Shown in pieces: positions 9,040-51,325 of a DNA stretch of 64,000 nucleotides. The stretch is from positions 43,586,001 to 43,650,000 of the forward strand of contig NC_042997.1 in NCBI RefSeq assembly GCF_006345805.1, given 5' to 3'. A model generated the notes under the pieces. It did not search any database, was not told the origin of the DNA, and worked only from the letters and a program-made list of their open reading frames with translations. The translations under genes and the position numbers were made by a program. Origin of the DNA: Octopus sinensis. Its lineage: Eukaryota. How positions within the stretch are numbered: position 1 is the first letter of the stretch; the number at the start of each line of letters is the position of its first letter.

Positions 9040-10790
9040 TTTAAAAAGGATTGACTTAACTCTTCACAAAGGTAAACTGTCAAGACAAAGAGCACGATTC
9101 GATCGTAATAGATAATTTATTGGTTGAACAATATTTCGACAGTAAGTCTGTCTTTGTCAAGTACAAAATAAAAGGTGATAAAAATTCAAAATTATAGAAA
9201 TTTAAATTCAAAGTATGAACGAGAGCAACCAGCGTCCACGCGTTGATGGAATGACATCATCGGTCTTTAAGTTACAATTTTATAACAGGCGAAAAGAAAA
9301 AGACAGAAAAAAAGACAGAAAAATAGGAAAGAAAAATGAAAAGGAAAAAGAAGAATATTTAATCAAACAGTTTTGTATGAATTTGATGATATTCTCCTGC
9401 CATTTTATTCATTCCTCCAGGGCGTGATGTTAATAACCCGCAAACATATTTCTCCTCATGCATTTTGAGAAGTGAAAGTGAAGCAGATTCAGAATATTTT
9501 CTGAGAATATGCACTTTCAAGTCTTCTTCAAAATTGCTGCCGCTTGAAATGAAATGTTCGGCAAGTTCTGTCGAACTACTGTTATTGTGCCTCACGTCGA
9601 ATCTGTGCCCATTAAACCTTTTGTTTAATTGTTCTGTTGTGCAACCAACATAAATCAAGTTGTGTTTCGTGCATTCTGCCGCGTACACCAAATGGAATCT
9701 CTACATGTCCTACCTTCTGAATAAATCATAACATTTCTGTTATGATTCCTGATGGAATTCACTTCACTCATGTTGTTGCATAATGAACAGGGCTTACCTC
9801 CCTTGCGGCTGTTTTTCAGAGTACAGCGTACAGATACTCCAATGTTCGTATTTTTTAAAGTCAGAAATAGAGGTCAATAATTCTCTTATATTCTTATTCC
9901 TTCTAAAGGCTACAATAGGCGGCTGAGGAAATATCTGCTTGAAACGAGGATATTTTTTCGTCACACGCTGGTAATTTTCATGCAACACGTTTGAAATGCC
10001 AGCGAAATGTCGGTGTCACTTAATCACGAAAGTAATTTTGTAATCTATCGTATTGTGTTTGCTAAAATTATGCGTGAAGGTTTGACAATCTTTGCTAATC
10101 TTAGCTATTTCATTTGTTATTTCCTTTAATCTTGATTCACTGCAACCGCATTTGACATAATGATATACAAAAGCATTTGCATGTTTCCAGTAATCCCCTA
10201 TGTCAATATATATCCGTTTTATCCTCAAAAGTTGGGATTTCGGATTTGACCGAATAATATGATGTGTATGATCGGAGAAGCGGTGGAGATAAATGTGGGA
10301 TGACGTGAGCTTGCAAAATAACTGTCCCTAGAAAACTTGACTTTTGTGTCCAAAAATTCAACGGTAGTTTTTGGAAATCTAGAACCTAAATTTTATGTTG
10401 GACTTAAAGCCATAGTTTTTAGCATAACAGTCACAGAAACGCAAGAAGTCCCTTAAGCTATTCTGTGATCCTTCCCAGACAAAAAAACACGTCATCAATG
10501 AACCGTAACCAGAGTATTGGTTCATGACCATGAAGGGTTTTGAATGTGTTCAGTAACTGCCTCGAATTTCGTCATGAGGATATTAGCGAAATTTATTGCC
10601 AAGGGGTTACCCATGGCGCAACCCTTCGTCTGGTGGTAAAATCTTTGTCTAAACTTCGTTGTGTTACTTTGTAACACAAACCTCAATATTCTAGAGAGAA
10701 AATTTGATAGAATACTTTTGTTTGACCGCTTTTCGAAGGCATCTATACCATATATTTTTTGCAATTTACTAAACAATTATCATCGTTTTG
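9040..10790 (-). mobile_element. Penelope-like element, degenerate (RT + GIY-YIG endonuclease)
   Basis: QTKGCAMGNPLAINFANILM, LRFIDDVF, PPIVAFRRNKNIRELL; GIY-YIG-like VYAAECTKHNLIYVGCTTEQLNKRFNGHR in ORF 9359-9691. Confidence 0.92.
9126..9166 (-). ncRNA. Degenerate hammerhead-like motif at the Penelope 3' end
   Basis: Minus strand TTGACAA-A-GACAG-actta-CTGTC-GAAA-TATT: stem II intact, core decayed. Confidence 0.4.
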
Positions 10791-11389: not shown

Positions 11390-12411
11390 TTCTTTCCACT
11401 TTAGACAAAAAGCCTGATATTTTTTGGGGCGGGTGTAAGTCGATTACATCGACCCCAATACTCAACTGATACTAATTTTATCGAGTCTGAAATTATGAAA
11501 GGCAAAGTCAACCTTAGCGGAATTTCAACTCAGAACGTAAAGACAGACGAAATACCTATTTCTTTACTACCCACAAGGGGCTAAACACAGAGAGGACAAA
11601 CAAGGACAGGCAAACGGATTAAGTCGATTATAGCGACCTCAGTGTGTAACTGGTACTTATTTAATCGACCACGGCGGAATTTGAACTCAGAACGTAGCGG
11701 CAGACGAAATACCTATTTCTTTACTACCCACAAGGGGCTAAACACAGAGAGGACAAACAAGGACAGACAAACGGATTAAGTCGATTATAGCGACCTCAGT
11801 ACGTAACTGGTACTTATTTAATCGACCACGGCGGAATTGAACTCAGAACGTAGCGGCAGACGAATACCTATTTCTTTACTACCACAAGGGGCTAAACACA
11901 GAGAGGACAAACAAGGACAGGCAAACGGATTAAGTCGATTATAGCGACCTCAGTGTGTAACTGGTACTTATTTAATCGACCACGGCGGAATTTGAACTCA
12001 GAACGTAGCGGCAGACGAAATACCTATTTCTTTACTACCCACAAGGGGCTAAACACAGAGAGGACAAACAAGGACAGACAAACGGATTAAGTCGATTATA
12101 GCGACCTCAGTACGTAACTGGTACTTATTTAATCGACCACGGCGGAATTTGAACTCAGAACGTAGCGGCAGACGAAATACCTATTTCTTTACTACCCACA
12201 AGGGGCTAAACACAGAGAGGACAAACAAGGACAGACAAACGGATTAAGTTGATTATATCGACCCCAGTGCATAACTGGTACTTATTTAATGGACCCCCGA
12301 AAGGACGAAAGGCAAAGTCAACCACGGCGGAATTTGAACTCAAAACGTAACGGCAGACGAAATACGGCTACGCATTTCGCCCGGCGTGCTAACGTTTCTG
12401 CCAGCTCGCTG
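11390..12411 (-). mobile_element. Multimeric SINE C with about 6 tandem body modules
   Basis: One head at about 12411; module starts at 11673, 11830, 11984 and 12141 (157, 154, 157 bp spacing). Confidence 0.9.
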
Positions 12412-12738: not shown

Positions 12739-13352
12739 AGTTTCAAATATTGGTACAAAACCAGCAATTTTGGGGAAGCAGGTTAAGTTGAGTATATCGA
12801 GTCCACTATTCAATTGGTACTTATTTCATCAATCCCAAAAAGATGAAAGGCAAAGCCGACCTCGGTGGAATTTGAACTCAGAACGTAAAGACGGACGAAA
12901 TGCCGCTAAGTATTTTTCCGGCGTGGTAATGATTCTTATTTCTTTATTGTCCACAAGGGGCTAAACATAGAAGGGACAAACAAGGACAGACAAGGGATTA
13001 AGTCGATTAAATAGACCCCAGTGCATAACTGGTACTTAATTTATCGACCCCGAAAGGATGAAAGGCAAAGTCGACCTCGGCAGAATTTGAACTCAGAACG
13101 TAACGGCAGACGAAATACCTATTTCTTTACTACCCACAAGGGGATAAACATAGAGGGGACAAATAAGGACAGACAAAGGTATTAAGTCGATTACATCGAC
13201 TCCAGTGCGTAACTGGTACTTATTTAATCGACCCCGAAAGGATGAAAGGCAAAGTCGACCAAGGCGGAATTTGAACTCAGAACGTAGCGGCAGACGAAAT
13301 TCTGCTAAGCATTTCGCCCGGCGCGCTAACGATTTTGCCAGCTCATCACCTT
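12739..13352 (-). mobile_element. Trimeric SINE C with probable TSD
   Basis: Three body modules; AAGATTAATATT at 12727-12738 and AAGACTAATATT at 13358-13369. Confidence 0.88.
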
Positions 13353-14266: not shown

Positions 14267-14662
14267 GTTAGTGCGTGTTTGTCTGTCCATTGTGTGCGAC
14301 AGAAGCACCATTTGTTTAAAATAGCAATCTCAGTGTCATACTCAAAGCAGATGCATCAATGAGAGCTTAATCAACTGTGATATTTGCCCTGAGATAGTAT
14401 CTCTTATAGACGTATAGTGTTAAAAAAACAACACAGCAGCAGGCGAAAATTGTCCAGCAGTGGTAGTAGCATTGCTAAATGCGCATTTCTGCCTCTTTGG
14501 GATTCCTCGACTAGGAAAGAAAATAGAAAAGAAAAAGAACTTAATGAATTTTTTTCTAGACTAATTATTTTCCATCTACAAGAATGTCTGGCGTCATTAC
14601 ATGTTTAATTTATACATGTCGGGTTATGTCCTGCTGAAAGTTTCTAAAAAGAATGAAATATT

Positions 14663-14824
14663 GGCGCAGAAGTGGCTGTGTGGTAAGTAGCTTGCTAACC
14701 AACCACATGGTTCCGGGTTCAGTCCCACTGCGTGGCACCTTGGGCAAGTGTCTTCTACTATAGCCCAGGGCCGACCAATGCCTTGTGAGTGGATTTAGTA
14801 GACGGAAACTGAAAGAAGCCTGTC

Positions 14825-14865
<41 letters not shown>

Positions 14866-15359
14866 AATATAAACAAGAGGGGTAGTAATATTAGTTACTA
14901 CCAAGTGCCCAGCACAAAAGACGAATTAGTCGTTAGACAAAATATTATTCATATAGAAAAATATTGTTCATGTAGAAATACAATTAAAGGCTCCTAATAA
15001 TTTAGGAGCCTTTAATTATATTTCTACATGAACGAGTGCTGGGAACACAAAGGGGATGAACTTATCGAGAGTGAAAATCAAAAACGTTTACCGATAACTT
15101 TACATCTCGGACTGATCAGTTTCTGCCTACTTCTAGCGAAACACAGAATATGATTGCTAAGGCTGGCTTTATCAACGAGTCGCCTAAATTGAATCGAGGT
15201 CTGCAGCGATGTGAGACCATGTGTTTCGCTAGAAGTAGGCAGAAACTGATCAGTCCGAGATGTAAAGTTATCGGTAAACGTTTTTGATTTTCACTCTCGA
15301 TAAGTTCATCCCCTTTGTGTTCCCAGCACTCGGCATCCTAATTTAGAAGCCTTTAATTG

Positions 15360-15431
<72 letters not shown>

Positions 15432-15646
15432 TGTGTTTGTGTCTCCCCCTAGCATTGCTTGACAACCGATGCTGGTGTGTTTACGTCCCCGTCACTTAGC
15501 GGTTCGGCAAAAAGAGACCGATAGAATAAGTACTGGGCTTACAAAAAGAATAAGTCCCGGGTCGATTTGCTCGACTAAAAAGGCGGTGCTCCAGCATGGC
15601 CGCAGTCAAATGACTGAAACAAGTAAAAGAGAAGAGAGTAAAGAGT
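14663..15646 (+). mobile_element. SINE family B, interrupted by a foldback insertion
   Basis: A box TGGCTGTGTGG, B box GGTTCAGTCCC, CORE-like CCTTGGGCAAGT, internal (TA)n(TG)n and AAGAGT-type tail. Confidence 0.9.
14863..15362. mobile_element. Foldback/MITE-like insertion in (TA)n
   Basis: Inverted repeat of 113 bp (15033-15145 / 15220-15332) plus a hairpin at 14966-15033. Confidence 0.75.
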
Positions 15647-15771
15647 ATTGCTACATGTGATTTTTTAAAGACTCGAAATTTCAAAGAACTTTCGGTAATA
15701 AGTAAAGTAAAAGAATAAATATGCATATTCTATACGTATTCTTCTTCACCAATTTCAAATTCAAGCTTCGA

Positions 15772-16054
15772 ATTCCTCCAAATACAATGAAGAAATGATT
15801 CCTCCAAATACAATGAAGAAATGATTCCTCCAAATACAATGAAGCAATGATTCCTCCAAATACAATGAAGAAATGATTCCTCCAAATACAATGAAGCAAT
15901 GATTCCTCCAAATACAATGAAGAAATGATTCCTCCAAATACATGAAGAAATGATTCTCCAAATACAATGAAGCAATGATTCTCCAAATACAATGAAGAAA
16001 TGATTCCTCCAAATACAATGAAGAAATGATTCCTCCAAATACAATGAAGAAATG
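15772..16054. repeat. 26-bp minisatellite, about 11 copies
   Basis: Unit ATTCCTCCAAATACAATGAAG(A/C)AATG. Confidence 0.95.
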
Positions 16055-34834: not shown

Positions 34835-34872
<38 letters not shown>

Positions 34873-34875
<3 letters not shown>

Positions 34876-35177
34876 TCGTAGGAGCACTAGGAATGATCAA
34901 GAAGGGAACCGAAAATTATATGAGAATGATCCCTGCAAGAAGTGCAAAAGATTGTCTTAACTGGTACATCACACGTATTGAGAAGAGCATTGTCGATGTG
35001 AGAACTGTTGCTGCTCATGTATTTTAATTTAACTTAAAAAAAAAAAAAATTTTTAATGAACGAACTATTGAGTTTGGTTTAATGGCCTACCAATGTATAC
35101 TATGAGTTTCTTTGCCCTAGGAGTCGGGAAGACACTCGGCAAGAAATGGAAGCAAATTTGAAAGAAGAAAAAAAAAG
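34873..35177 (+). mobile_element. RLE (Dong/R4-like) LINE, short 5'-truncated copy in (TAA)n
   Basis: IVGALGMIKKGTENYMRMIP plus 3' UTR; (TAA)n on both sides; near-identical to 39690-40007. Confidence 0.9.
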
Positions 35178-35229
35178 TAATAATAATAATAATAATAATG
35201 ATGATGATGACGACGACGACGACGATGAT

Positions 35230-37572
35230 GGAAGATATAAACTCTTTGAACAGTGTAGTATCAATGCTTGTCAGGAAAAGAAATGAAAAACTTAAGAAAG
35301 AATGGAAATTCGAAAAAGTTAGGAGGAAGTATGGTGTAGATACAAAGTTCTTGAATGTTGTAATTGAAGAACTGAAGCAGCGCATACATGCAAAAAAAGC
35401 AAAGCTGATGGTGTACAGGGATTTTGGATAATAATGTTCAGTAGTTGCCATAAATTGATCGCAGAGCAATTTGATGCATTTATCAATGGAGAAGAAGAAA
35501 TCCCGGACTGGTCGACAAAAGGACGAACGGTGTTGTGCCTGAAGGATGCATCAAAGGGAAATGCTGCTGACAATTACAGACCAATTTCCTGCCTCTCGTT
35601 AATGTGTAAGTTACTGTCAGGAGGAATTGCAGAAGAACTGTATAAATTTCTTGATGAGAGCGATATATTGCCGACAGAGCAAAAAGGCTGTAGAAGAGAG
35701 ATGCGGAGGAACCAAAGATCAACTATTGATAGACAAAATGGTAATGCAAGATTGTAAACAAAGGAGAACAAATCTGGGAATGGTCTGGATCGACTATCGC
35801 AAAGCTTATGATATGATTCCACATCCGATGATCATCGCGTGCTTAGATCTGTTTGGAATTGCGAGGAATTTAACGTGTTTCCTGAAGAGAACTGTGGTGG
35901 GATGGAAAACTGAACTGACGTCTTACGGAAAAAGCTTGCACACCCTGGGTATCAGAAGAGGGACTTCCCAGGGTGATAGCTTATCTCCGTTGCTGTTCTC
36001 TGCATGATACCTCTGACCTTAGTACTTAGGAAAATGAACCTAGGGCATCAACTAAAGGAAAATCCCAAACCATCAACCACCTCTTCTTCGTGGATTAATG
36101 GAAACTGGATGGCAAAGATGAGACACAAGTGAATTCCTTGGTGAACACGGTCCACTGTTTTTGTACTAGTATTAGAATGGAATTTAGACTCAAAAGTGCG
36201 GAATAATCTACCTAAAGAGAGGCAAGTTGCAGTCCCTGGCAGGGGTAAAATTACCAATTAGAGACTTGAATAAACAAGTTGAAACGGAAGGAGGCAAATA
36301 TCTTGGTCTACTGGAGTTCAACGAGATAATGGAAAAAGGAAATGAAAGAGTAACTGAGGATGGAGTATTTCCGAAGACTGAGGTTAGTGTTGCGTTCAAA
36401 ATTGACTGGATGGAACAAAATCCAAGCAGTTAATACGTGGGAGATAGCATTACTTCGGTATGGAGCGAGAATTATAAAATGGCAAAAGAGAGAAGTGAAG
36501 AAAATGGATACCAAGACCAGAAAAATGTTGACAGTACACGTAGCCTTCCACCCTAAGAGTGACACCGATATGCTGTACTTGTCGAGAAGAAAGGGTGGGA
36601 GAGGTTTGATCGGTTGCCGGGAATGTATCGGAGCAGAGGAAAACAGCTTAGGGTGGCATATTAAAAATGCCGTGGAGCCACTGTTGAATCACATGAAGGC
36701 CGGCGTCATCAAAACTGAAAAAATGTGTAACTAAAAGAAAATTTAAACAAGGAATGAACGAAAAAAAAAAGGAAAAGAAAAGGCATGGAAGGAAAAGAAA
36801 ATGAACGGTCAGATACAGAGGACCGGTGGCTATGGATGAGGGGGAGTGACCTGAAGATAGAGACAGCAGTACTCATATGCGCAGCTCAAGAACAAACGCT
36901 AAGGATCAAATATATGAAGTGCACTGATAGCGACAAATGAAGAACGTGTAATGAGAGGGGTGTAACTGTATGGCATATCGTTAGCGAATGCTCGAAATTG
37001 GCACAACGTGAATACAAAAGACACCATGTCAAAGTGGCAAGAATGATCCGTTGGGAGCTCTGTGGAAATCACGGCCTACAAAGAGCAGAGACGTGGTATG
37101 AGAAAACTCCAGAAGGCGTCACCAAAAATGAGACTAGCAAAATCCTGTGGGATGCAATGATCCAGTGCGATCAGCGGACCAGACATCGGAAAAAAGTAAG
37201 GTGTATGTCAATCGACATAGCATGCCCCGGTGACAACAGGATCAATGTGAAAGAAGAAGAAAAAGCGAAACAACTATGGCGATTTGAAGTGGGGAAATAC
37301 GAAGGTTGTGGTAAATGAAGAGAGTAGACGTGATACTAATAGTAATTGGTGCGCTTGGAAGTATCAGCACTCAACTACCAACATGGCTGAAAAAAGATTG
37401 ATGCAAGTGTGAAGGTAGAACACTTACAAAAATCAGCATTGCATGGAACTGCAAGAATTCTTCACAGGGTTCTTGAATCATGACCAGTAAACAAGTGTCA
37501 CCTTAGTCTGCTGGCTGTGGACAGCTGACACTTTTCATCATAGCCAGCAAAATAAGCTGTGAGTGTTCACAT
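35230..37572 (+). mobile_element. RLE (R4/Dong-like) LINE, second family, frameshifted
   Basis: [55 protein letters not shown]; ends in (TAA)n. Confidence 0.92.
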
Positions 37573-37589
37573 GATAATAATAACAATAA

Positions 37590-37798
37590 TCTTTTCTACT
37601 ATAACTACAAGGCCTGAAATTTGGGGGAAGTTGACTAATCGACTACATCAATGTCAGTACTCAATTGGTACTTATTTTTTCGACCCTGAAAGGGCAAGAG
37701 GCAAAGTGGGCCCCGATAGAATTTGAACTCAGAAGGTAAGGCCGGAAGAAATGTTACTAAGCATTTACTCCGGTGTAGTAACGATTAAGCACCACCTT
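37590..37798 (-). mobile_element. Degenerate SINE C
   Basis: GGTACTTATTT...GAATTTGAACTCAGAA. Confidence 0.7.
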
Positions 37799-37800
37799 GA

Positions 37801-38421
37801 GGTAGAAAAATGTAACGATTCTTTGAGACTTTCCAGTACACAGACAGAACCATCAAAAGTAATGAACCAGATATTGTGAAAAACCAACCCAGCAGAGTTT
37901 GTTGAATGATCGACCTGAGCATTCTTTCTGATCATAATATCTCGGCAAAAGAAGTTGACAAGTTCATAATATGTATAGATTTTCAGACTGAAATCGAAAA
38001 AATGTGGCATCTAAAGACGGTTAAAATACCAGTGATTGTAGGAGCACTTGGAATGATTAAAAAAGGGACTGAAAAGTATTTGAGAATGATCCCCGGTTTG
38101 CCAGCCATCTAAGAAGCGCAAAAGATTGTTTTAACTGGTAACTGGTCACACGTACTGAGAAGAGAATTGTTGCTGTGAATTTTCTTTCCTTTTTTCTCCG
38201 TTTTCTTTGTTTTCTTTTTCCATTTTTTCTTTTCTTTAAATTTTCTATCTTTTCTTTTTTCCTATATTTTTTTCTTTTTTGCCCTCTTTTTCTGTCATAT
38301 AACTTGACTTCCTAAATAAACAATCGGGTATATTTATTTTAATGGCTTACAAATGTATTCAGAGAGTTTCTTTGTCCTAGGTGTCGGGAAGACACTCGGC
38401 AAGAAATGGAAACAAATTTGA

Positions 38422-38422
<1 letters not shown>
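37801..38422 (+). mobile_element. RLE LINE 3' portion
   Basis: EIEKMWHLKTVKIPVIVGALGMIKKG; 3' UTR homologous to the other copies; followed by (TAA)n to 38508. Confidence 0.88.
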
Positions 38423-38452
<30 letters not shown>

Positions 38453-38508
38453 TAATAATAATATAATGATAATAATAATAATAATAATAATGATAATAAT
38501 AATAATAA

Positions 38509-39498
38509 AACAGAACTGAACAACTCTAAACACCTATAACATCGGAAGATGTCACCCAGGCACTGCAAAAAACAAAGTAATTGAAAAGTACCCGGATATG
38601 ACAAGATCTCCAATTTTTGGCCGAAATATTTAACCGGGATACATAAGATGCTGACCGAGAAATTCAATGAGATGCTAGAATAGCCAGAGGCAACATCTGA
38701 ATAACTCACAGAAAGGAAAACCATCCTAATTCCAAACTTCCCTGAAACGACAGACCCACAAAACTACAGACCCATAATATGTTATGGGTCTGTAGTTTTG
38801 TGGGTCTGTCCCTACAACTTACAAAGTCTTAACTGCAAAAATATTGTAGAGAATGGCGCAGGAGTGGCATAGGCGCAGGAGTGGCTGTGTGGTAAGTAGC
38901 TTGCTAACCAACCACATGGTTCCGGGTTCAGTCCCACTGCGTGGTATCTTGGGCAAGTGTCTTCTGCTACAGCCCCGGGCCGACCAATGCCTTGTGAGTG
39001 GATTTGGTAGACGGAAACTGAAAGAAGCCTGTCGTATATATGTATATATATATGTATGTGTGTGTGTGTGTGTTTGTGTATGTGTGTTTGTCCACCTAGC
39101 ATTGCTTGACAACCGATGCTGGTGTGTTTACGTCCCCGTCACTTAGCGGTTCGGCAAAAGAGACCGATAGAATAAGTACTGGGCTTACAAAAAATAAGTT
39201 CCGGGGTCGATTTGCTCGACTAAAGGCGGTGCTCCAGCATGGCCGCAGTCAAATGACTGAAACAAGTAAAAGAGTAAAAAGAGTAATGGGCAAACATATA
39301 GAAGAAAACAACTTGTTTCCAGAAGAGCAGAAGGGTTGCTGCAAAGGACCACATGGCTGTAAAGATCAGTTATTGATCAATAAGCCATAACTGAAGACAG
39401 CTGGAAGGAAAAGAAGGGTCTTGGATCGATTACCGACATTATTCCCCACACGTGGATCCTGGAAACACTAGCCATGAACAGGGTAGCACTAACTATAA
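38509..39498 (+). mobile_element. RLE LINE pre-RT/RT fragment interrupted by SINE B
   Basis: KVPGYDKISNFW, NYRPI, PEEQKGCCKGPHGCKDQLLINK. Confidence 0.85.
38872..39284 (+). mobile_element. SINE family B, full length, with duplicated 5' end
   Basis: Family B sequence preceded by an extra GGCGCAGGAGTGGC at 38855-38868. Confidence 0.93.
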
Positions 39499-39541
39499 TA
39501 AGGCTTTGGTCGGTCCGACGCTGTAATAGAAGACACTTGAA

Positions 39542-39586
39542 CATCCTTGCACAGGGGCCATGCTAATTTTCTCTGTATCGTTCCAA
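39542..39586 (-). pseudogene. U6: U6 snRNA fragment
   Basis: Minus strand TTGGAACGATACAGAGAAAATTAGCATGGCCCCTGTGCAAGGATG has 2 mismatches to the metazoan U6 ACAGAGA box/ISL region as I recall it. Confidence 0.9.
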
Positions 39587-39659
<73 letters not shown>

Positions 39660-39662
<3 letters not shown>

Positions 39663-40006
39663 TGGCATCTCAAGGCGGTTACAATACCAGTGATCGTAGG
39701 AGCACTAGGAATGATCAAGAAGGGAACCGAAAATTATATGAGAATGATCCCTGGCTTACTATCCCTGCAAGAAGTGCAAAAGATTGTCTTAACTGGTACA
39801 TCACACGTATTGAGAAGAGCATTGTCGATGTGAGAACTGTTGCTGCTCATGTATTTTAATTTAACTTTAAAAAAAAAAAAAAAAAATTAACGAACTACTG
39901 AGTTTGGTTTAATGGCCTACCAATATATACTATGAGTTTCTTTGCCCTAGGAGTCGGGAAGACACTCGGCAAGAAATGGAAGCAAATTTGAAAGAAGAAA
40001 AAAAAA

Positions 40007-40007
<1 letters not shown>
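39660..40007 (+). mobile_element. RLE LINE, short 5'-truncated copy in (TAA)n
   Basis: MWHLKAVTIPVIVGALGMIKKG...SHVLRRALSM*; (TAA)n on both sides. Confidence 0.9.
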
Positions 40008-40079
<72 letters not shown>

Positions 40080-40083
<4 letters not shown>

Positions 40084-40886
40084 TCGTAACACAGTGTAGG
40101 TAAAAATGCACTGGAGTCTTTGGTCATCTGTCAAGTCACAACAAGGACTTCAGGCAGATAATATTTTCCTTAAGATGTGTGCTGTGGCCAATAAGGCAGC
40201 TTTTTGCAAGGCATCAATCTTGCATAGGGTTTCCAGTTGCCTTAAGAAGTCTTGAAGTTTCAATGGGATTGAGCTCAACGCCCCGATCACCGCTGGTATC
40301 ACTTTTACCTTACCCTCTCGCATTCCATACAGTCTTGCCATTTCCACTTTCAATTTGGAGTACTTGATGATTTTTTCAACCTCTTTACTCACAACATTCT
40401 TGTCATTTGGTATGGCTACATCAATGATCTGACAGTATTTGTCTCCCTTATTCAATATGACAATATCCGGCCGACGGTGTTCGACTACACGATCCGTCTG
40501 AAAATCATAGTCCCAGAGTATCGTTACTTGTACATCTTCCTGCATACCTTTACTTGGTACATACTCATACCAGTTCTCTGTTACTTCATATTGGTATTTA
40601 TGGCATAAATGCCAATGAAGATACACACACACTTTATCGTGGCGGTGCTTGTATTCTTTTTGTGCAAAGCTCTCACATCCACTTACCAAGTGGATCGTAT
40701 TTTCCACACTCTTTCTACAGAGTCTGCATATCTGAGTGTCAGAAGTTTTATAGATGTTACACTTCACTGAATTTTTAGTGAGAGCCTGTTCTTGTGCAGT
40801 AATGATCAGGCTTTCGGTGGTACGCTTCAAATCACCTCGCTCAAGCCATGCCCATGATACTGTATTATCTTTAACGTCTTGTGTAC
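40080..40886 (-). mobile_element. RLE LINE 3' part with open CCHC + restriction-like endonuclease frame
   Basis: ORF 40150-40830: CRLCRKSVENTIHLVSGC, HRHDKV, RPDIV, IIDVAIP, EKIIKY, IGALS; (TAA)n on both sides on the minus strand. Confidence 0.93.
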
Positions 40887-40946
<60 letters not shown>

Positions 40947-42391
40947 CATCATTATTATTATTATCATCATCATCATCATCATCATTATTAATATTATTAA
41001 TATTATCATAAAAATTACAATAAGAAGAGTAACGATATTAAACACAACGGCAACATGACACGTGATAATAAGGATTGTAATTGTAGAAAACTCAATTATT
41101 GCCCTTTGTATGGTCATTGCTTGCGATATAATGTCATTTATAAGTGCATTGTTTTTATTAGATATCAAAATTCAACCAAAATATATATAGCATTTATTTA
41201 TTCTAAGAGACGCACATGTTAGTTCGTTCTCTAATATTAAGCGCAAATCTATTTCACCGGCAAATTATAGCCATCATCTCAAAGCTACTAATATTTCCTA
41301 TAACTTTTTCGGATCTGTCCTTAGGTCGGGGAGAACTCACCAAGCTGGTTGTACAGCATGCAATTTGTACAGCAGTGAATCTCTCGATATTACGTGAGAA
41401 TAAAGATTTTCTCCTCAACAGTGTCACATAATAACAATCTGCCAGCATAGATGTTTTAAAACATTTCCCTTTTACTATATAGATCAACACACTCGAATCG
41501 ACCAGTTAACTGTAAGCTTCTATTTTGATCTGACATTCTCGTCCTTGCTTTTATGTATTCCGCTTTTAATGTGTACATCTATTTACTAACCTTTTTAGAA
41601 TTACGACATACCTTAATTTTTTACGTATTTGATTTTTTTCCGTTTTTACTATCCATCATTATATATCTACATCTTTATCCGTTCCCCGACCTTTATTGTT
41701 TTGTAGTGGTGCCATCTTTAGCTACACATTTGGGCACCAATACTACATCTGGTTGCCAAAGTGTGCTTCTTCCACATAGCAGGGGACATTTTGCTTCTTT
41801 TTTTTTTCCATTTCCTTTTTCTTTTTAATTGATTCTCTTTGATCTCTTCTCTCAAGCCAATATTCTTCAAACATAATAACGAACTGTCTTTTGATAGACT
41901 AGCTTCTTAAATCAAAGGAATGGCCCTTTCATTTATTTTGCATTTTTTAATTTCCCTTTTCTTTTGTCTTTCTCTTCCTTTTTCTACCCCTTCTTCCTCT
42001 ACACTGCTTAATAACATTCTTTTTATCTTGACCTCACCTGCTTTCCTCTTTCCCTGTATTCGCCAATCTCTTAGTGATTATCCACCTTCTTTTCCTTCCT
42101 TTTATTGATACTAGTGCAATATCATAAATATCTGATCTGGTACTATAGCGTTTGCCTTCACCACTCTTCCTTCCAACGAAAATATTCGGTGCCTCCAGTC
42201 TGAAGATATTCGCGCATCGTGTTTCATGCGAGTTTATAATGTTTCAACTTATTTTGTTTGTTTGGTGTGCATAATTACTCTATTATTATATATGCCAATT
42301 TGCATAATGTGCATTATAGCACTAACGAATTCCCGAAGTTTTGAAACAATTCTAAAGGACAACCTTCATCTTGTAATTTGTATTTGTAACA

Positions 42392-44047: not shown

Positions 44048-44436
44048 TTCTTTACTCTTTTACTCTTTTACTTGTTTCATCCATTTGACTGCGGCCATGC
44101 TGGAGCACCGCCTTTGGTCGAACAAATCGACCCCAGGACTTATTCTTTATAAGCTTAGTACTTATTCTATCGGTCTCTTTTGCCGAACCGCTAAGTTACG
44201 GAGACGTAAACGCACCAACATCAGTTGTCAAGCGAGGACAAAGACAGACACACAAATACATACATATACATACGACGGGCTTCTCTCAGTTTCCATCTTC
44301 TAAATCCACTCACAAGGCTTTGGTTGGCCCGAGGCTATAGTAGAAGACATTTGGCAAAGGTGCCATACAGATGGATTGAACCCGGAACCATGTAGCTCGA
44401 AAGCAAGCTTCTTACCACGTAACCACTCCTGCGCCT
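44048..44436 (-). mobile_element. SINE family B (diverged) whose 5' end runs into the satellite
   Basis: Tail TCTTTACTCTTTTAC, body and head homologous to 26177-26622. Confidence 0.88.
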
Positions 44437-47400
44437 ACGGCCACTCCTGCGCCTACTGCCACTCCTGCGCCTACAGCAACTCCTGCGCCTACAGCCACTC
44501 CTGCGCCTACGGCCACTCCTGCGCCTACGGCCACTCCTGCGCCTACTGCCACTCCTGTGCCTACTGCCACTCCTGCGCCTACGGCCACTCCTGCGCCTAC
44601 GGCCACTCCTGCGCCTACAGCCACTCCTGCGCCTACTGCCACTCCTGCGCCTACAGCCACTCCTGCGCCTACGGCCACTCCTGCGCCTACAGCCACTCCT
44701 GCGCCTACGGCCACTCCTGCGCCTACGGCCACTCCTGCGCCTACAGCCACTCCTGCGCCTACTGCCACTCCTGCGCCTACAGCCACTCCTGCGCCTACAG
44801 CCACTCCTGCGCCTACAGCCACTCTGCGCCTACGGCCACTCCTGCGCCTACAGCCACTCCTGCGCCTACGCCACTCCTGCGCCTACGGCCACTCCTGCGC
44901 CTACCAGCCACTCCTGCGCCTACGGCCACTCCTGCGCCTACGGCCACTCCTGCGCCTACAGCCACTCCTGCGCCTACTGCCACTCCTGCGCCTACGGCCA
45001 CTCCTGCGCCTACGGCCACTCCTGCGCCTACGGCCACTCCTGCGCCTACTGCCACTCCTGCGCCTACAGCCACTCCTGCGCCTACAGCCACTCCTGCGCC
45101 TACAGCCACTCCTGCGCCTACGGCCACTCCTGCGCCTACAGCCACTCCTGCGCCTACGGCCACTCCTGCGCCTACGGCCACTCCTGCGCCTACAGCCACT
45201 CCTGCGCCTACTGCCACTCCTGCGCCTACAGCCACTCCTGCGCCTACGGCCACTCCTGCGCCTACAGCCACTCCTGCGCCTACGGCCACTCCTGCGCCTA
45301 CGGCCACTCCTGCGCCTACAGCCACTCCTGCGCCTACTGCCACTCCTGCGCCTACAGCCACTCCTGCGCCTACAGCCACTCCTGCGCCTACAGCCACTCC
45401 TGCGCCTACGGCCACTCCTGCGCCTACAGCCACTCCTGCGCCTACAGCCACTCCTGCGCCTACGGCCACTCCTGCGCCTACAGCCACTCCTGCGCCTACG
45501 GCCACTCCTGCGCCTACGGCCACTCCTGCGCCTACAGCCACTCCTGCGCCTACTGCCACTCCTGCGCCTACGGCCACTCCTGCGCCTACGGCCACTCCTG
45601 CGCCTACGGCCACTCCTGCGCCTACTGCCACTCCTGCGCCTACAGCCACTCCTGCGCCTACAGCCACTCCTGCGCCTACAGCCACTCCTGCGCCTACGGC
45701 CACTCCTGCGCCTACAGCCACTCCTGCGCCTACAGCCACTCCTGCGCCTACGGCCACTCCTGCGCCTACAGCCACTCCTGCGCCTACGGCCACTCCTGCG
45801 CCTACTGCCACTCCTGCGCCTACAGCCACTCCTGCGCCTACAGCCACTCCTGCGCCTACGGCCACTCCTGCGCCTACTGCCACTCCTGCGCCTACAGCCA
45901 CTCCTGCGCCTACAGCCACTCCTGCGCCTACAGCCACTCTGCGCCTACAGCCACTCCTGCGCCTACAGCCACTCCTGCGCCTACAGCCACTCCTGCGCTA
46001 CAGCCACTCCTGCGCCTACGGCCACTCCTGCGCCTACGGCCACTCCTGCGCCTACGGCCACTCCTGCGCCTACAGCCACTCCTGCGCCTACGGCCACTCC
46101 TGCGCCTACGGCCACTCCTGCGCCTACAGCCACTCCTGCGCCTACAGCCACTCCTGCGCCTACAGCCACTCCTGCGCCTACAGCCACTCCTGCGCTACGG
46201 CCACTCCTGCGCCTACAGCCACTCCTGCGCCTACAGCCACTCCTGCGCCTACAGCCACTCCTGCGCCTACAGCCACTCCTGCGCTACGGCCACTCCTGCG
46301 CCTACAGCCACTCCTGCGCCTACAGCCACTCCTGCGCCTACAGCCACTCCTGCGCCTACAGCCACTCCTGCGCCTACTGCCACTCCTGCGCCTACAGCCA
46401 CTCTGCGCCTACGGCCACTCCTGCGCCTACTGCCACTCCTGCGCCTACAGCCACTCCTGCGCTACAGCCACTCCTGCGCCTACGGCACTCCTGCGCCTAC
46501 AGCCACTCCTGCGCCTACGGCCACTCCTGCGCCTACTGCCACTCCTGCGCCTACAGCCACTCCTGCGCCTACAGCCACTCCTGCGCCTACGGCCACTCCT
46601 GCGCCTACTGCCACTCCTGCGCCTACAGCCACTCCTGCGCCTACAGCCACTCCTGCGCCTACAGCCACTCCTGCGCCTACAGCCACTCCTGCGCCTACAG
46701 CCACTGCGCCTACTGCCACTCCTGCGCCTACGGCCACTCCTGCGCCTGCAGCCACTCCTGCGCCTACAGCCACTCCTGCGCCTACGGCCACTCCTGCGCC
46801 TACAGCCACTCCTGCGCCTACGGCCACTCCTGCGCCTACTGCCACTCCTGCGCCTACGGCCACTCCTGCGCCTACAGCCACTCCTGCGCCTACAGCCACT
46901 CCTGCGCCTACAGCCACTCCTGCGCCTACAGCCACTCCTGCGCCTACGGCCACTCCTGCGCCTACAGCCACTCCTGCGCCTACGGCCACTCCTGCGCCTA
47001 CAGCCACTCCTGCGCCTACAGCCACTCCTGCGCCTACAGCCACTCCTGCGCCTACAGCCACTCCTGCGCCTACGCCACTCCTGCGCCTACAGCACACTCC
47101 TGCGCCTACGGCCACTCCTGCGCCTACAGCCACTCCTGCGCCTACGGCCACTCCTGCGCCTACGGCCACTCCTGCGCCTACGGCCACTCCTGCGCCTACA
47201 GCCACTCCTGCGCCTACGGCCACTCCTGCGCCTACAGCCACTCCTGCGCCTACAGCCACTCCTGCGCCTACAGCCACTCCTGCGCCTACGGCCACTCCTG
47301 CGCCTACAGCCACTCCTGCGCCTACAGCCACTCCTGCGCCTACAGCCACTCCTGCGCCTACAGCCACTCCTGCGCCTACGGCCACTCCTGCGCCTACAGC

Positions 47401-49054
47401 CACTCCTGCGCCTACAGCCACTCCTGCGCCTACAGCCACTCCTGCGCCTACAGCCACTCCTGCGCCTACGGCCACTCCTGCGCCTACAGCCACTCCTGCG
47501 CCTACAGCCACTCCTGCGCCTACAGCCACTCCTGCGCCTACGGCCACTCCTGCGCCTACAGCCACTCCTGCGCCTACAGCCACTCCTGCGCCTACGGCCA
47601 CTCCTGCGCCTACAGCCACTCCTGCGCCTACAGCCACTCCTGCGCCTACGGCCACTCCTGCGCCTACAGCCACTCCTGCGCCTACAGCCACTCCTGCGCC
47701 TACGGCCACTCCTGCGCCTACGGCCACTCCTGCGCCTACAGCCACTCCTGCGCCTACGGCCACTCCTGCGCCTACAGCCACTCCTGCGCCTACAGCACCC
47801 TCCTGCGCCTACGGCCACTCCTGCGCCTACAGCCACTCCTGCGCCTACAGCCACTCCTGCGCCTACAGCCACTCCTGCGCCTACGCCACTCCTGCGCCTA
47901 CAGCCACTCCTGCGCCTACAGCCACTCTGCGCCTACGGCCACTCCTGCGCCTACGGCCACTCCTGCGCCTACAGCCACTCCTGCGCCTACAGCCACTCCT
48001 GCGCCTACGGCCACTCCTGCGCCTACTGCCACTCCTCCTGCGCCTACGGCCACTCCTGCGCCTACGGCCACTCCTGCGCTACAGCCACTCCTGCGCCTAC
48101 GGCCACTCTCCTGCGCCTACGGCCACTCCTGCGCCTACAGCCACTCCTGCGCCTACAGCCACTCCTGCGCCTACAGCCACTCCTGCGCCTACAGCCACTC
48201 CTGCGCCTACAGCCACTCCTGCGCCTACGGCCACTCCTGCGCCTACAGCCACTCCTGCGCCTACGGCCACTCCTGCGCCTACGGCCACTCCTGCGCCTAC
48301 AGCCACTCCTGCGCCTACAGCCACTCCTGCGCCTACAGCCACTCCTGCGCCTACGGCCACTCCTGCGCCTACAGTCACTCCTGCGCCTACAGCCACTCCT
48401 GCGCCTACGGCCACTCCTGCGCCTACGGCCACTCCTGCGCCTACAGCCACTCCTGCGCCTACTGCCACTCTGCGCCTACGGCCACTCCTGCGCCTACGGC
48501 CACTCCTGCGCCTACAGCCACTCCTGCGCCTACGGCCACTCCTGCGCCTACGGCCACTCCTGCGCCTACAGCCACTCCTGCGCCTACAGCCACTCCTGCG
48601 CCTACAGCCACTCCTGCGCCTACAGCCACTCCTGCGCCTACGGCCACTCCTGCGCCTACAGCACACTCCTGCGCCTACAGCCACTCCTGCGCCTACAGCC
48701 ACTCCTGCGCCTACGGCCACTCCTGCGCCTACGGCCACTCCTGCGCCTACAGCCACTCCTGCGCCTACAGCCACTCCTGCGCCTACAGCCACTCCTGCGC
48801 CTACAGCCACTCCTGCGCCTACAGCCACTCCTGCGCCTACGGCCACTCCTGCGCCTACGGCCACTCCTGCGCCTACAGCCACTCCTGCGCCTACTGCCAC
48901 TCCTGCGCCTACAGCCACTCCTGCGCCTACAGCCACTCCTGCGCCTACAGCCACTCCTGCGCCTACAGCCACTCCTGCGCCTACAGCCACTCCTGCGCCT
49001 ACAGCCACTCCTGCGCCTACAGCCACTCCTGCGCCTACTGCCACTCCTGCGCCT
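44423..49054. repeat. 18-bp satellite, about 257 units by length
   Basis: Unit GCCACTCCTGCGCCTAC[A/G/T]. Confidence 0.98.
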
Positions 49055-49174
49055 AGTTGATCCCCATAAATTTCTCTGTGTTAGTATTGAGAACAACTCG
49101 TCGAAAAATCTAGACTGCGTTTCAAACTTGGCTAAGAATCTAGAAAGCTGTGTGTGTGTGTGTGTGTGTGTGTG

Positions 49175-51156: not shown

Positions 51157-51325
51157 GAGCTGGCATGGTTGTGTGGCTTGGAAGCTTGATTTGCGACCAG
51201 GTGGGTCTGAGTTCAGTCCCCATTGTGCACGCAGTTACTGAGGAAGGCATCTACTAAAGCCCTAGTCTGACCGACGCTTCCAGAGAGAATTTGATAGATG
51301 GATACTGTTTGGAAACCTGTCACGT
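51157..51325 (+). mobile_element. Degenerate SINE B 5' half
   Basis: TGGTTGTGTGG A box and GAGTTCAGTCCC B box, then (TG)n. Confidence 0.65.

Follow-up and report, generated by a model that had tools for sequence, protein, structure and literature searches.

One copy of a short interspersed repeat that we call SINE B, inserted in the reading frame of a non-LTR retrotransposon, has its first 14 bases twice at its 5' junction, and the extra unit was probably made during integration, by a 5' joining that was primed, aborted and re-primed. In the window (the whole stretch of repeat-rich eukaryotic DNA analysed, 64 kb long) the 14-mer GGCGCAGGAGTGGC is found at the edge of this insertion and again, identically, at 38872-38885, with the spacer ATA in between and a period of 17 bp (Table 1). 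This arrangement, GGCGCAGGAGTGGC-ATA-GGCGCAGGAGTGGC at a SINE 5' junction, had been pointed out in a preliminary description of the DNA, and we find it as described at 38855 and 38872. When up to two mismatches are allowed, the 14-mer has 252 matches in the window, compared to 0.10 expected by chance; among the 200 matches listed, only those at 14663, 38855 and 38872 fall outside an array at 44.4-49.1 kb.

Table 1. Features of the duplicated SINE head, its surroundings and the array (positions in the window).
Feature	Position	Strand	Evidence or detail
Extra head unit (nt 1-14 of the SINE), without leader	38855..38868	+	Sequence match
Spacer ATA, putatively the SINE's own 5' leader	38869..38871	+	Tyr register of outside copies
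Full-length SINE B	38872..39284	+	A-box-like motif 38882-38892, B-box-like motif 38925-38935, central (TA)/(TG) microsatellite, AAAGAGT-type tail
Left TSD AATGG, its GG also the first two bases of the extra unit	38852..38856	+	
Right TSD AATGG	39285..39289	+	
RT fragment of the host non-LTR retrotransposon, 5' of the insertion, broken by stops	38522..38856	+	Aligns to paralog 35518-35694
Host LINE RT, frame resumes	39290..39497	+	Alignment to paralog
Fold-back (snap-back) inverted duplication in host LINE, perfect 28-bp arms	38749..38810	.	Ends 41 bp before left TSD
U6 snRNA fragment (~39542-39590) fused to internal SINE B fragment (39500-39539)	39500..39590	-	Rfam U6, 57.7 bits (cut-off 44)
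Array of SINE B head, 258 units of 18 bp	44418..49056	-	Unit count, one variable position
More diverged SINE B body attached to array	44052..44435	-	Sequence comparison

The duplicated head and its host LINE

The order of parts at the junction is a target site duplication (TSD), a leaderless copy of head nucleotides 1-14, ATA, the full SINE (about 413 bp) and the second TSD. The outer junction has a microhomology of 2 nt, the GG that both ends the TSD and starts the extra unit, and because these two G's overlap the TSD the number of unambiguously SINE-derived bases in the unit is 12. Since the AAT of the left TSD is confirmed by the right TSD, the spacer ATA is a copy neither of the flank nor of the SINE's next bases (TGT). 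The locus is an imperfect 17-bp tandem pair that has not expanded, and we imply no function for the duplication.

The LINE reading frame around the SINE reveals what the empty site looked like. If the insert and one copy of the TSD are removed, the translation of the host reverse transcriptase (RT) aligns without gaps, in exact codon register, to a paralogous RT at 35518-35694, in an element with Pfam RVT_1 matches; this is a comparison at the protein level, with one diverged paralog rather than a DNA consensus as the reference. Among 14 junction lengths that we tried, zero extra bases gave the best score (88), compared to 72-84 for eight other in-frame lengths and 28-39 for five out-of-frame lengths. 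The earlier claim that the LINE frame resumes after the SINE is therefore confirmed, from position 39290 and in register with the paralog. So is the claim that the extra unit is unlikely to be pre-existing LINE flank: the unit is enclosed by the AATGG TSD, and the LINE codon register, intact without the insert, leaves no room for it. Nor does the LINE itself appear to contain the head here, because nowhere in the window's five LINE-bearing regions does the 14-mer match at more than 8-9 of its 14 bases. The chance of finding the 12 unambiguous bases as flank is about 5 x 10-7 over 30 offsets.

A cluster of related non-LTR retrotransposon pieces, in both orientations and with (TAA)n tracts between them, occupies 34836-41000. 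From their C-terminal zinc-finger and endonuclease-like motifs, which have no Pfam match, these pieces may belong to the R4/Dong clade. RTE and Dong LINEs have been reported in octopus (PMC9115989). A word-indexed protein search with the host LINE fragment returned one candidate and nothing significant. Elsewhere in the window, a GIY-YIG endonuclease fragment (9362-9700, minus strand; Pfam E = 6 x 10-6) probably comes from a Penelope-like element.

The SINE B family and its 5' leader

SINE B is an interspersed short repeat with many copies. There are five heads in the window (at 38872, 14663, 26625 and 44435, and a diverged one at 51159), and a search with the antisense frame of the SINE gave 50 protein matches, about 45 of which are clearly translations through SINE B copies at other loci. 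SINE B has the TSDs and the 3' short-repeat tail (of AAAGAGT type) that characterize target-primed insertion. For example, the single-headed copy at 14663 is flanked by a 5-bp TSD, TATTG (14659-14663 and 15646-15650), ending in a G that is common to the head. Both of the TSDs examined (AATGG and TATTG) are A/T-rich on their 5' side, and the SINE head is GC-rich. The (TA)n tract of the copy at 14663 houses an element of about 500 bp (14862-15360) with internal inverted repeats, inside which there is a 16-bp perfect hairpin (14982-15017).

The A-box-like and B-box-like motifs of SINE B are each one base off the consensus (as given in PMC4333407). ARAGORN found no tRNA genes, and there was no Rfam tRNA match. 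In its appearance, its tRNA-type box-like motifs and its repeat landscape, SINE B resembles the octopus SINEs, to which it may belong. The tRNA-derived SINEs described from octopus are OK, OR1 and OR2 (Ohshima and Okada 1994), of which OR2 is a CORE SINE (PMC4758252). None of the LINEs seen in the 64-kb window ends in the SINE tail motif, but a window of this size is too small a sample to be informative; the partner LINE is a presumed one.

To read the bases upstream of the head in copies outside the window we kept 18 of the 50 protein matches (score at least 100, alignment no more than 2 residues from the head end, and at least 6 residues beyond it) and excluded 32. Tyr, which corresponds to RTA on the SINE strand, occupies positions -3 to -1 in 9 of these 18 copies, compared to a downstream background of 6.8% (P = 8 x 10-7), in a sample that is biased because the copies are old and were picked by gene predictors, and with the provisos that Tyr can be ATA or GTA, that the query ended in Tyr-Ala-Thr, and that TTA and CTA leaders end the frame and are invisible. 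RTA thus appears to be the commonest SINE B leader among the outside copies (9/18), and the spacer ATA is consistent with being SINE B's own 5' leader. We had considered the TA that precedes the head in both the two-unit copy and the array to be a mark of common descent, and rejected this idea: with Tyr in 9 of the 18 outside copies, the shared TA is better read as the family leader.

Four of the protein matches were scanned and have eukaryote-type domains (Myb, exostosin, ubiquitin-conjugating and P450). In P0007, P0008, P0011 and P0022 the antisense SINE B frame is fused to domains of these types, by either exonisation or gene-model error. The multi-stretch matches P0002, P0003, P0020 and P0050, which were candidates for other SINE arrays, aligned poorly (scores 56-60) and were dropped; P0019, a tRNA-like match, was dropped too. 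A word-indexed protein search with the antisense SINE frame gave no candidate, two scans for exact SINE patterns that might have strayed into bacterial and archaeal genomes gave 0 matches each, and an atlas search gave three uninformative matches, all below 0.9.

Origin of the extra unit

Because both units lie within the TSD, the LINE has no room for the extra one, and ATA seems to be the family leader, we favor an origin at the time of integration. A partner LINE would reverse-transcribe a full-length SINE RNA that includes the ATA leader. The target overhang, 5 nt long and with a terminal GG, would then anneal at a point three bases inside the cDNA end, be extended by 12 bases and come off, and would rejoin at the cDNA end (with 0-1 nt of homology) before the second strand was completed. 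A jump of the RT back on the RNA could yield the same product.

Non-LTR retrotransposons provide parallels. In ZfL2-2 of zebrafish, a member of the L2 clade, about 40-50% of copies begin with additional nucleotides, many of which were copied from sequence close by; the TSDs of L2/CR1 elements peak at 3-5 bp (PMC4245944, PMC2666801). Junctions of R2 have direct duplications of 13-28 nt and repeated short units (PMC3774820), duplications and rearrangements are described at R1/R2 5' junctions (PMC2718515), and models of 5' joining are listed in PMC2912911. The junction studied here resembles these in that additional templated bases separate the 5' TSD from the element, and in having a short microhomology, a 5-bp TSD as in L2/CR1, and a duplication comparable to those of R2. 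It differs in that the element is a SINE and the duplication copies its own first 14 nt, whereas in the accounts of ZfL2, R1 and R2 that we drew on the duplicated bases are mainly target DNA; that published 5' duplications mostly copy the target, and not the first bases of the element, counts against an origin at integration.

Template-switch products cluster around the insertion, which agrees with that origin, although neither of them can be dated relative to it. Upstream, the fold-back that interrupts the host RT frame looks like snap-back templated repair; it is the longer of two non-microsatellite perfect hairpins with arms of at least 15 bp among the 10 listed for the 64 kb. Downstream, where the host RT breaks off 210 bp beyond the SINE, the fusion of U6 to SINE B resembles a template-switch chimera, and apart from its truncated U6 fragment nothing in the window reaches the Rfam gathering score.

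It is unlikely that the two-unit head was instead already in the RNA, with a duplicated-head source transcribed from an upstream A box and this copy as its offspring. The junction does create a canonical A box (TRGYnnAnnnG, consensus from PMC4333407) at 38865-38875, with another at 38854; it is 17 bp upstream of the native non-canonical A-box-like element, which lacks such a match. The junction is also one base short of the 5'-most unit of the array, which is in favor of this reading. However, the A box motif is common (103 matches in the window, compared to 125 expected by chance), the junction sequence GGCATAGGCG occurs only once in the window, the bodies of the two-unit copy and the array-bearing copy differ by 9-18%, and none of the 18 outside copies has a second head unit, in a search that detected both window controls.

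The exact order of parts, including the leader, would also result from a double insertion, if a second SINE had entered an earlier head behind base 14 and the pair had then been collapsed, within the first TSD, by recombination of the two bodies. Tandem elements are documented to arise when insertions recur at a single site (bioRxiv 10.1101/158386), but this scheme requires two further rare events, there is no uncollapsed SINE inserted in a SINE head among the five heads in the window, and the two TSDs examined, A/T-rich on the 5' side, are unlike the GC-rich head that would have been the target. We regard it as very unlikely.

Replication slippage after insertion, in which 17 bp of TSD and head were duplicated and the spacer mutated later, is highly unlikely. 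The best phase of the 17-bp unit is identical at 15 of 17 positions, and GG/GGC microhomologies are present on both sides of the unit. Slippage is disfavored because no phase gives a clean tandem pair: all 11 have at least two mismatches, all within the 3-4 junction bases. It would need two adjacent changes in three bases, in a copy that is only 5% (5' domain) and <1% (3' domain) different from its closest relative, and those changes would also need to restore the family leader.

Finally, an assembly or consensus artefact, or pre-existing flank, is barely credible: the assembly is not error-free, as seen in about 20 indel-bearing array units, but a base-calling error is unlikely to produce an exact 14-base copy together with a spacer that the array lacks, and flank is excluded by the codon register and the TSD.

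The 18-bp array and the recurrence of head duplication

The preliminary description saw the pair as a two-unit seed of the same satellite as the array at 44-49 kb, on an independent SINE copy. Independence is upheld by the bodies: the seed SINE and the array-bearing SINE are 82% (5' domain) and 91% (3' domain) identical, compared to 92-95% and 97-99% among the three younger SINE B copies, so with 9-18% divergence the seed and the array are independent insertions. The identity of the satellites did not survive, because the period is 17 bp in one and 18 bp in the other and the seed junction is found in 0 of 258 array units. The pair resembles the array unit without being identical to it, and is not shown to be the array's first step. 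The 5'-most array unit is a rare A variant (23 of 258 units), and the seed junction equals the A variant minus one G; this one-base difference leaves room for shared descent, which it fits equally well.

The array unit consists of the leader TA plus head bases 1-16, with one variable base (T in 144 units, C in 89, A in 23, another state in 2, and never G). Near the SINE the array has a higher-order repeat of 32 units (autocorrelation 0.54, a value reached in 0.6% of 500 shuffles). The units with indels are typical of imperfect polishing. Because leader and head template the whole of the main unit, simple slippage suffices for the origin of the array and is its simplest explanation; the array would then stem from a separate duplication, with other breakpoints, in another SINE copy. 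Slippage or unequal exchange might in principle enlarge a pair; we found no intermediates of 3-10 units between the pair and the array.

We rejected a coding role for the array, because its plus-strand open frames follow from a stop-free unit and are crossed by the indel-bearing units. Comparison of the array frame to proteins (lengths 66-210 only) gave 610 candidates, of which none reached E <= 10. In two open frames the variable base is at a synonymous site, probably by coincidence, and a small inverted repeat is complete when this base is C. Folding of the SINE head RNA is no better than that of shuffled sequences (z = -0.05, -0.59 and 0.77). A G-quadruplex as a cause of stalling was rejected, with G4Hunter scores of 0.60-0.72 falling below the usual cut-off of 1.2, and so was a hairpin at unit junctions, which is weak (-0.9 to -1.9 kcal/mol).

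Family-wide recurrence of head duplication is suggestive only. In the window, duplicated heads are seen in 2 of 4 well-conserved SINE B copies and in 0 of 12 heads of SINE A, whose longest repeat is 9 nt (Fisher P = 0.05). When the array is excluded because it prompted the finding, 1 of 3 SINE B heads is duplicated (P = 0.2); when the fifth head (51159), which has no duplication, is included, the count is 2 of 5, one of them the array itself (P = 0.07, by hand). The outside copies, with best scores for a second unit of 2-13 compared to 27 and 34 for the seed and array controls, set an upper bound of 15% on two-unit heads in this biased sample of 18. Tandem formation is not peculiar to SINE B, because SINE A has tandem duplications of another kind, covering part of the element, in the same window: a 157-bp unit repeated five times at 11517-12295 (96% alike) and a 184-bp unit repeated twice at 12937-13300. 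There is also a 26-bp minisatellite at 15772-16054 (11 copies, 96% alike).

A broader scheme, to which we give little credence, is that the head is a duplication hotspot: integration would repeatedly double the first 14-18 bases with varied breakpoints, some doublings would create an upstream Pol III A box and so be transcribed and re-inserted, and the pairs would seed GC-rich minisatellites, including the 258-unit array.

SINE-derived satellites are known in squamates, where sSat1-3 have units of about 70-290 nt, loci with few units and variable breakpoints occur along with long homogeneous arrays, a primary duplication usually remains single, and nuclei are defined as loci with at least four units (Vassetzky, Kosushkin and Ryskov 2023, PMC10702118). 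As in sSat, the tandem unit is shorter than the SINE and the terminal unit continues into the SINE, in the pair and the array alike. Unlike sSat, the units are 17-18 nt long and derive from the very start of the SINE, and the genome is of invertebrate type. The array, with 258 units, is well above the four-unit threshold, and the pair at 38855, with two, is below it; by analogy, the pair would correspond to a primary duplication of the sSat model. Minisatellites are also associated with Alu (n = 2663), and mouse (GGCAGA)n comes from B1 (PMC9659126). These too are short GC-rich units expanded from within a SINE, but they arise from internal proto-repeats after insertion, whereas the pair described here was apparently made at the insertion junction. 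We found no description of the SINE B head repeat in the literature that we searched, which covered few subscription papers and no repeat databases.

A pair made at integration is a good example of an ordinary mechanism. Of the steps by which mobile elements give rise to satellites, the making of the first tandem pair has been documented least, and this junction, anecdotal as a single case, argues that the pair formed at integration rather than by later slippage. If breakpoints genome-wide prove to concentrate at a hotspot in the head, and unit numbers to run continuously from two to hundreds, SINE B would be a clean system for measuring rates of seed formation and expansion. If the junction A box is used, two-unit heads could be transcribed and spread, and on the hotspot reading retrotransposition itself would write and spread satellite seeds.
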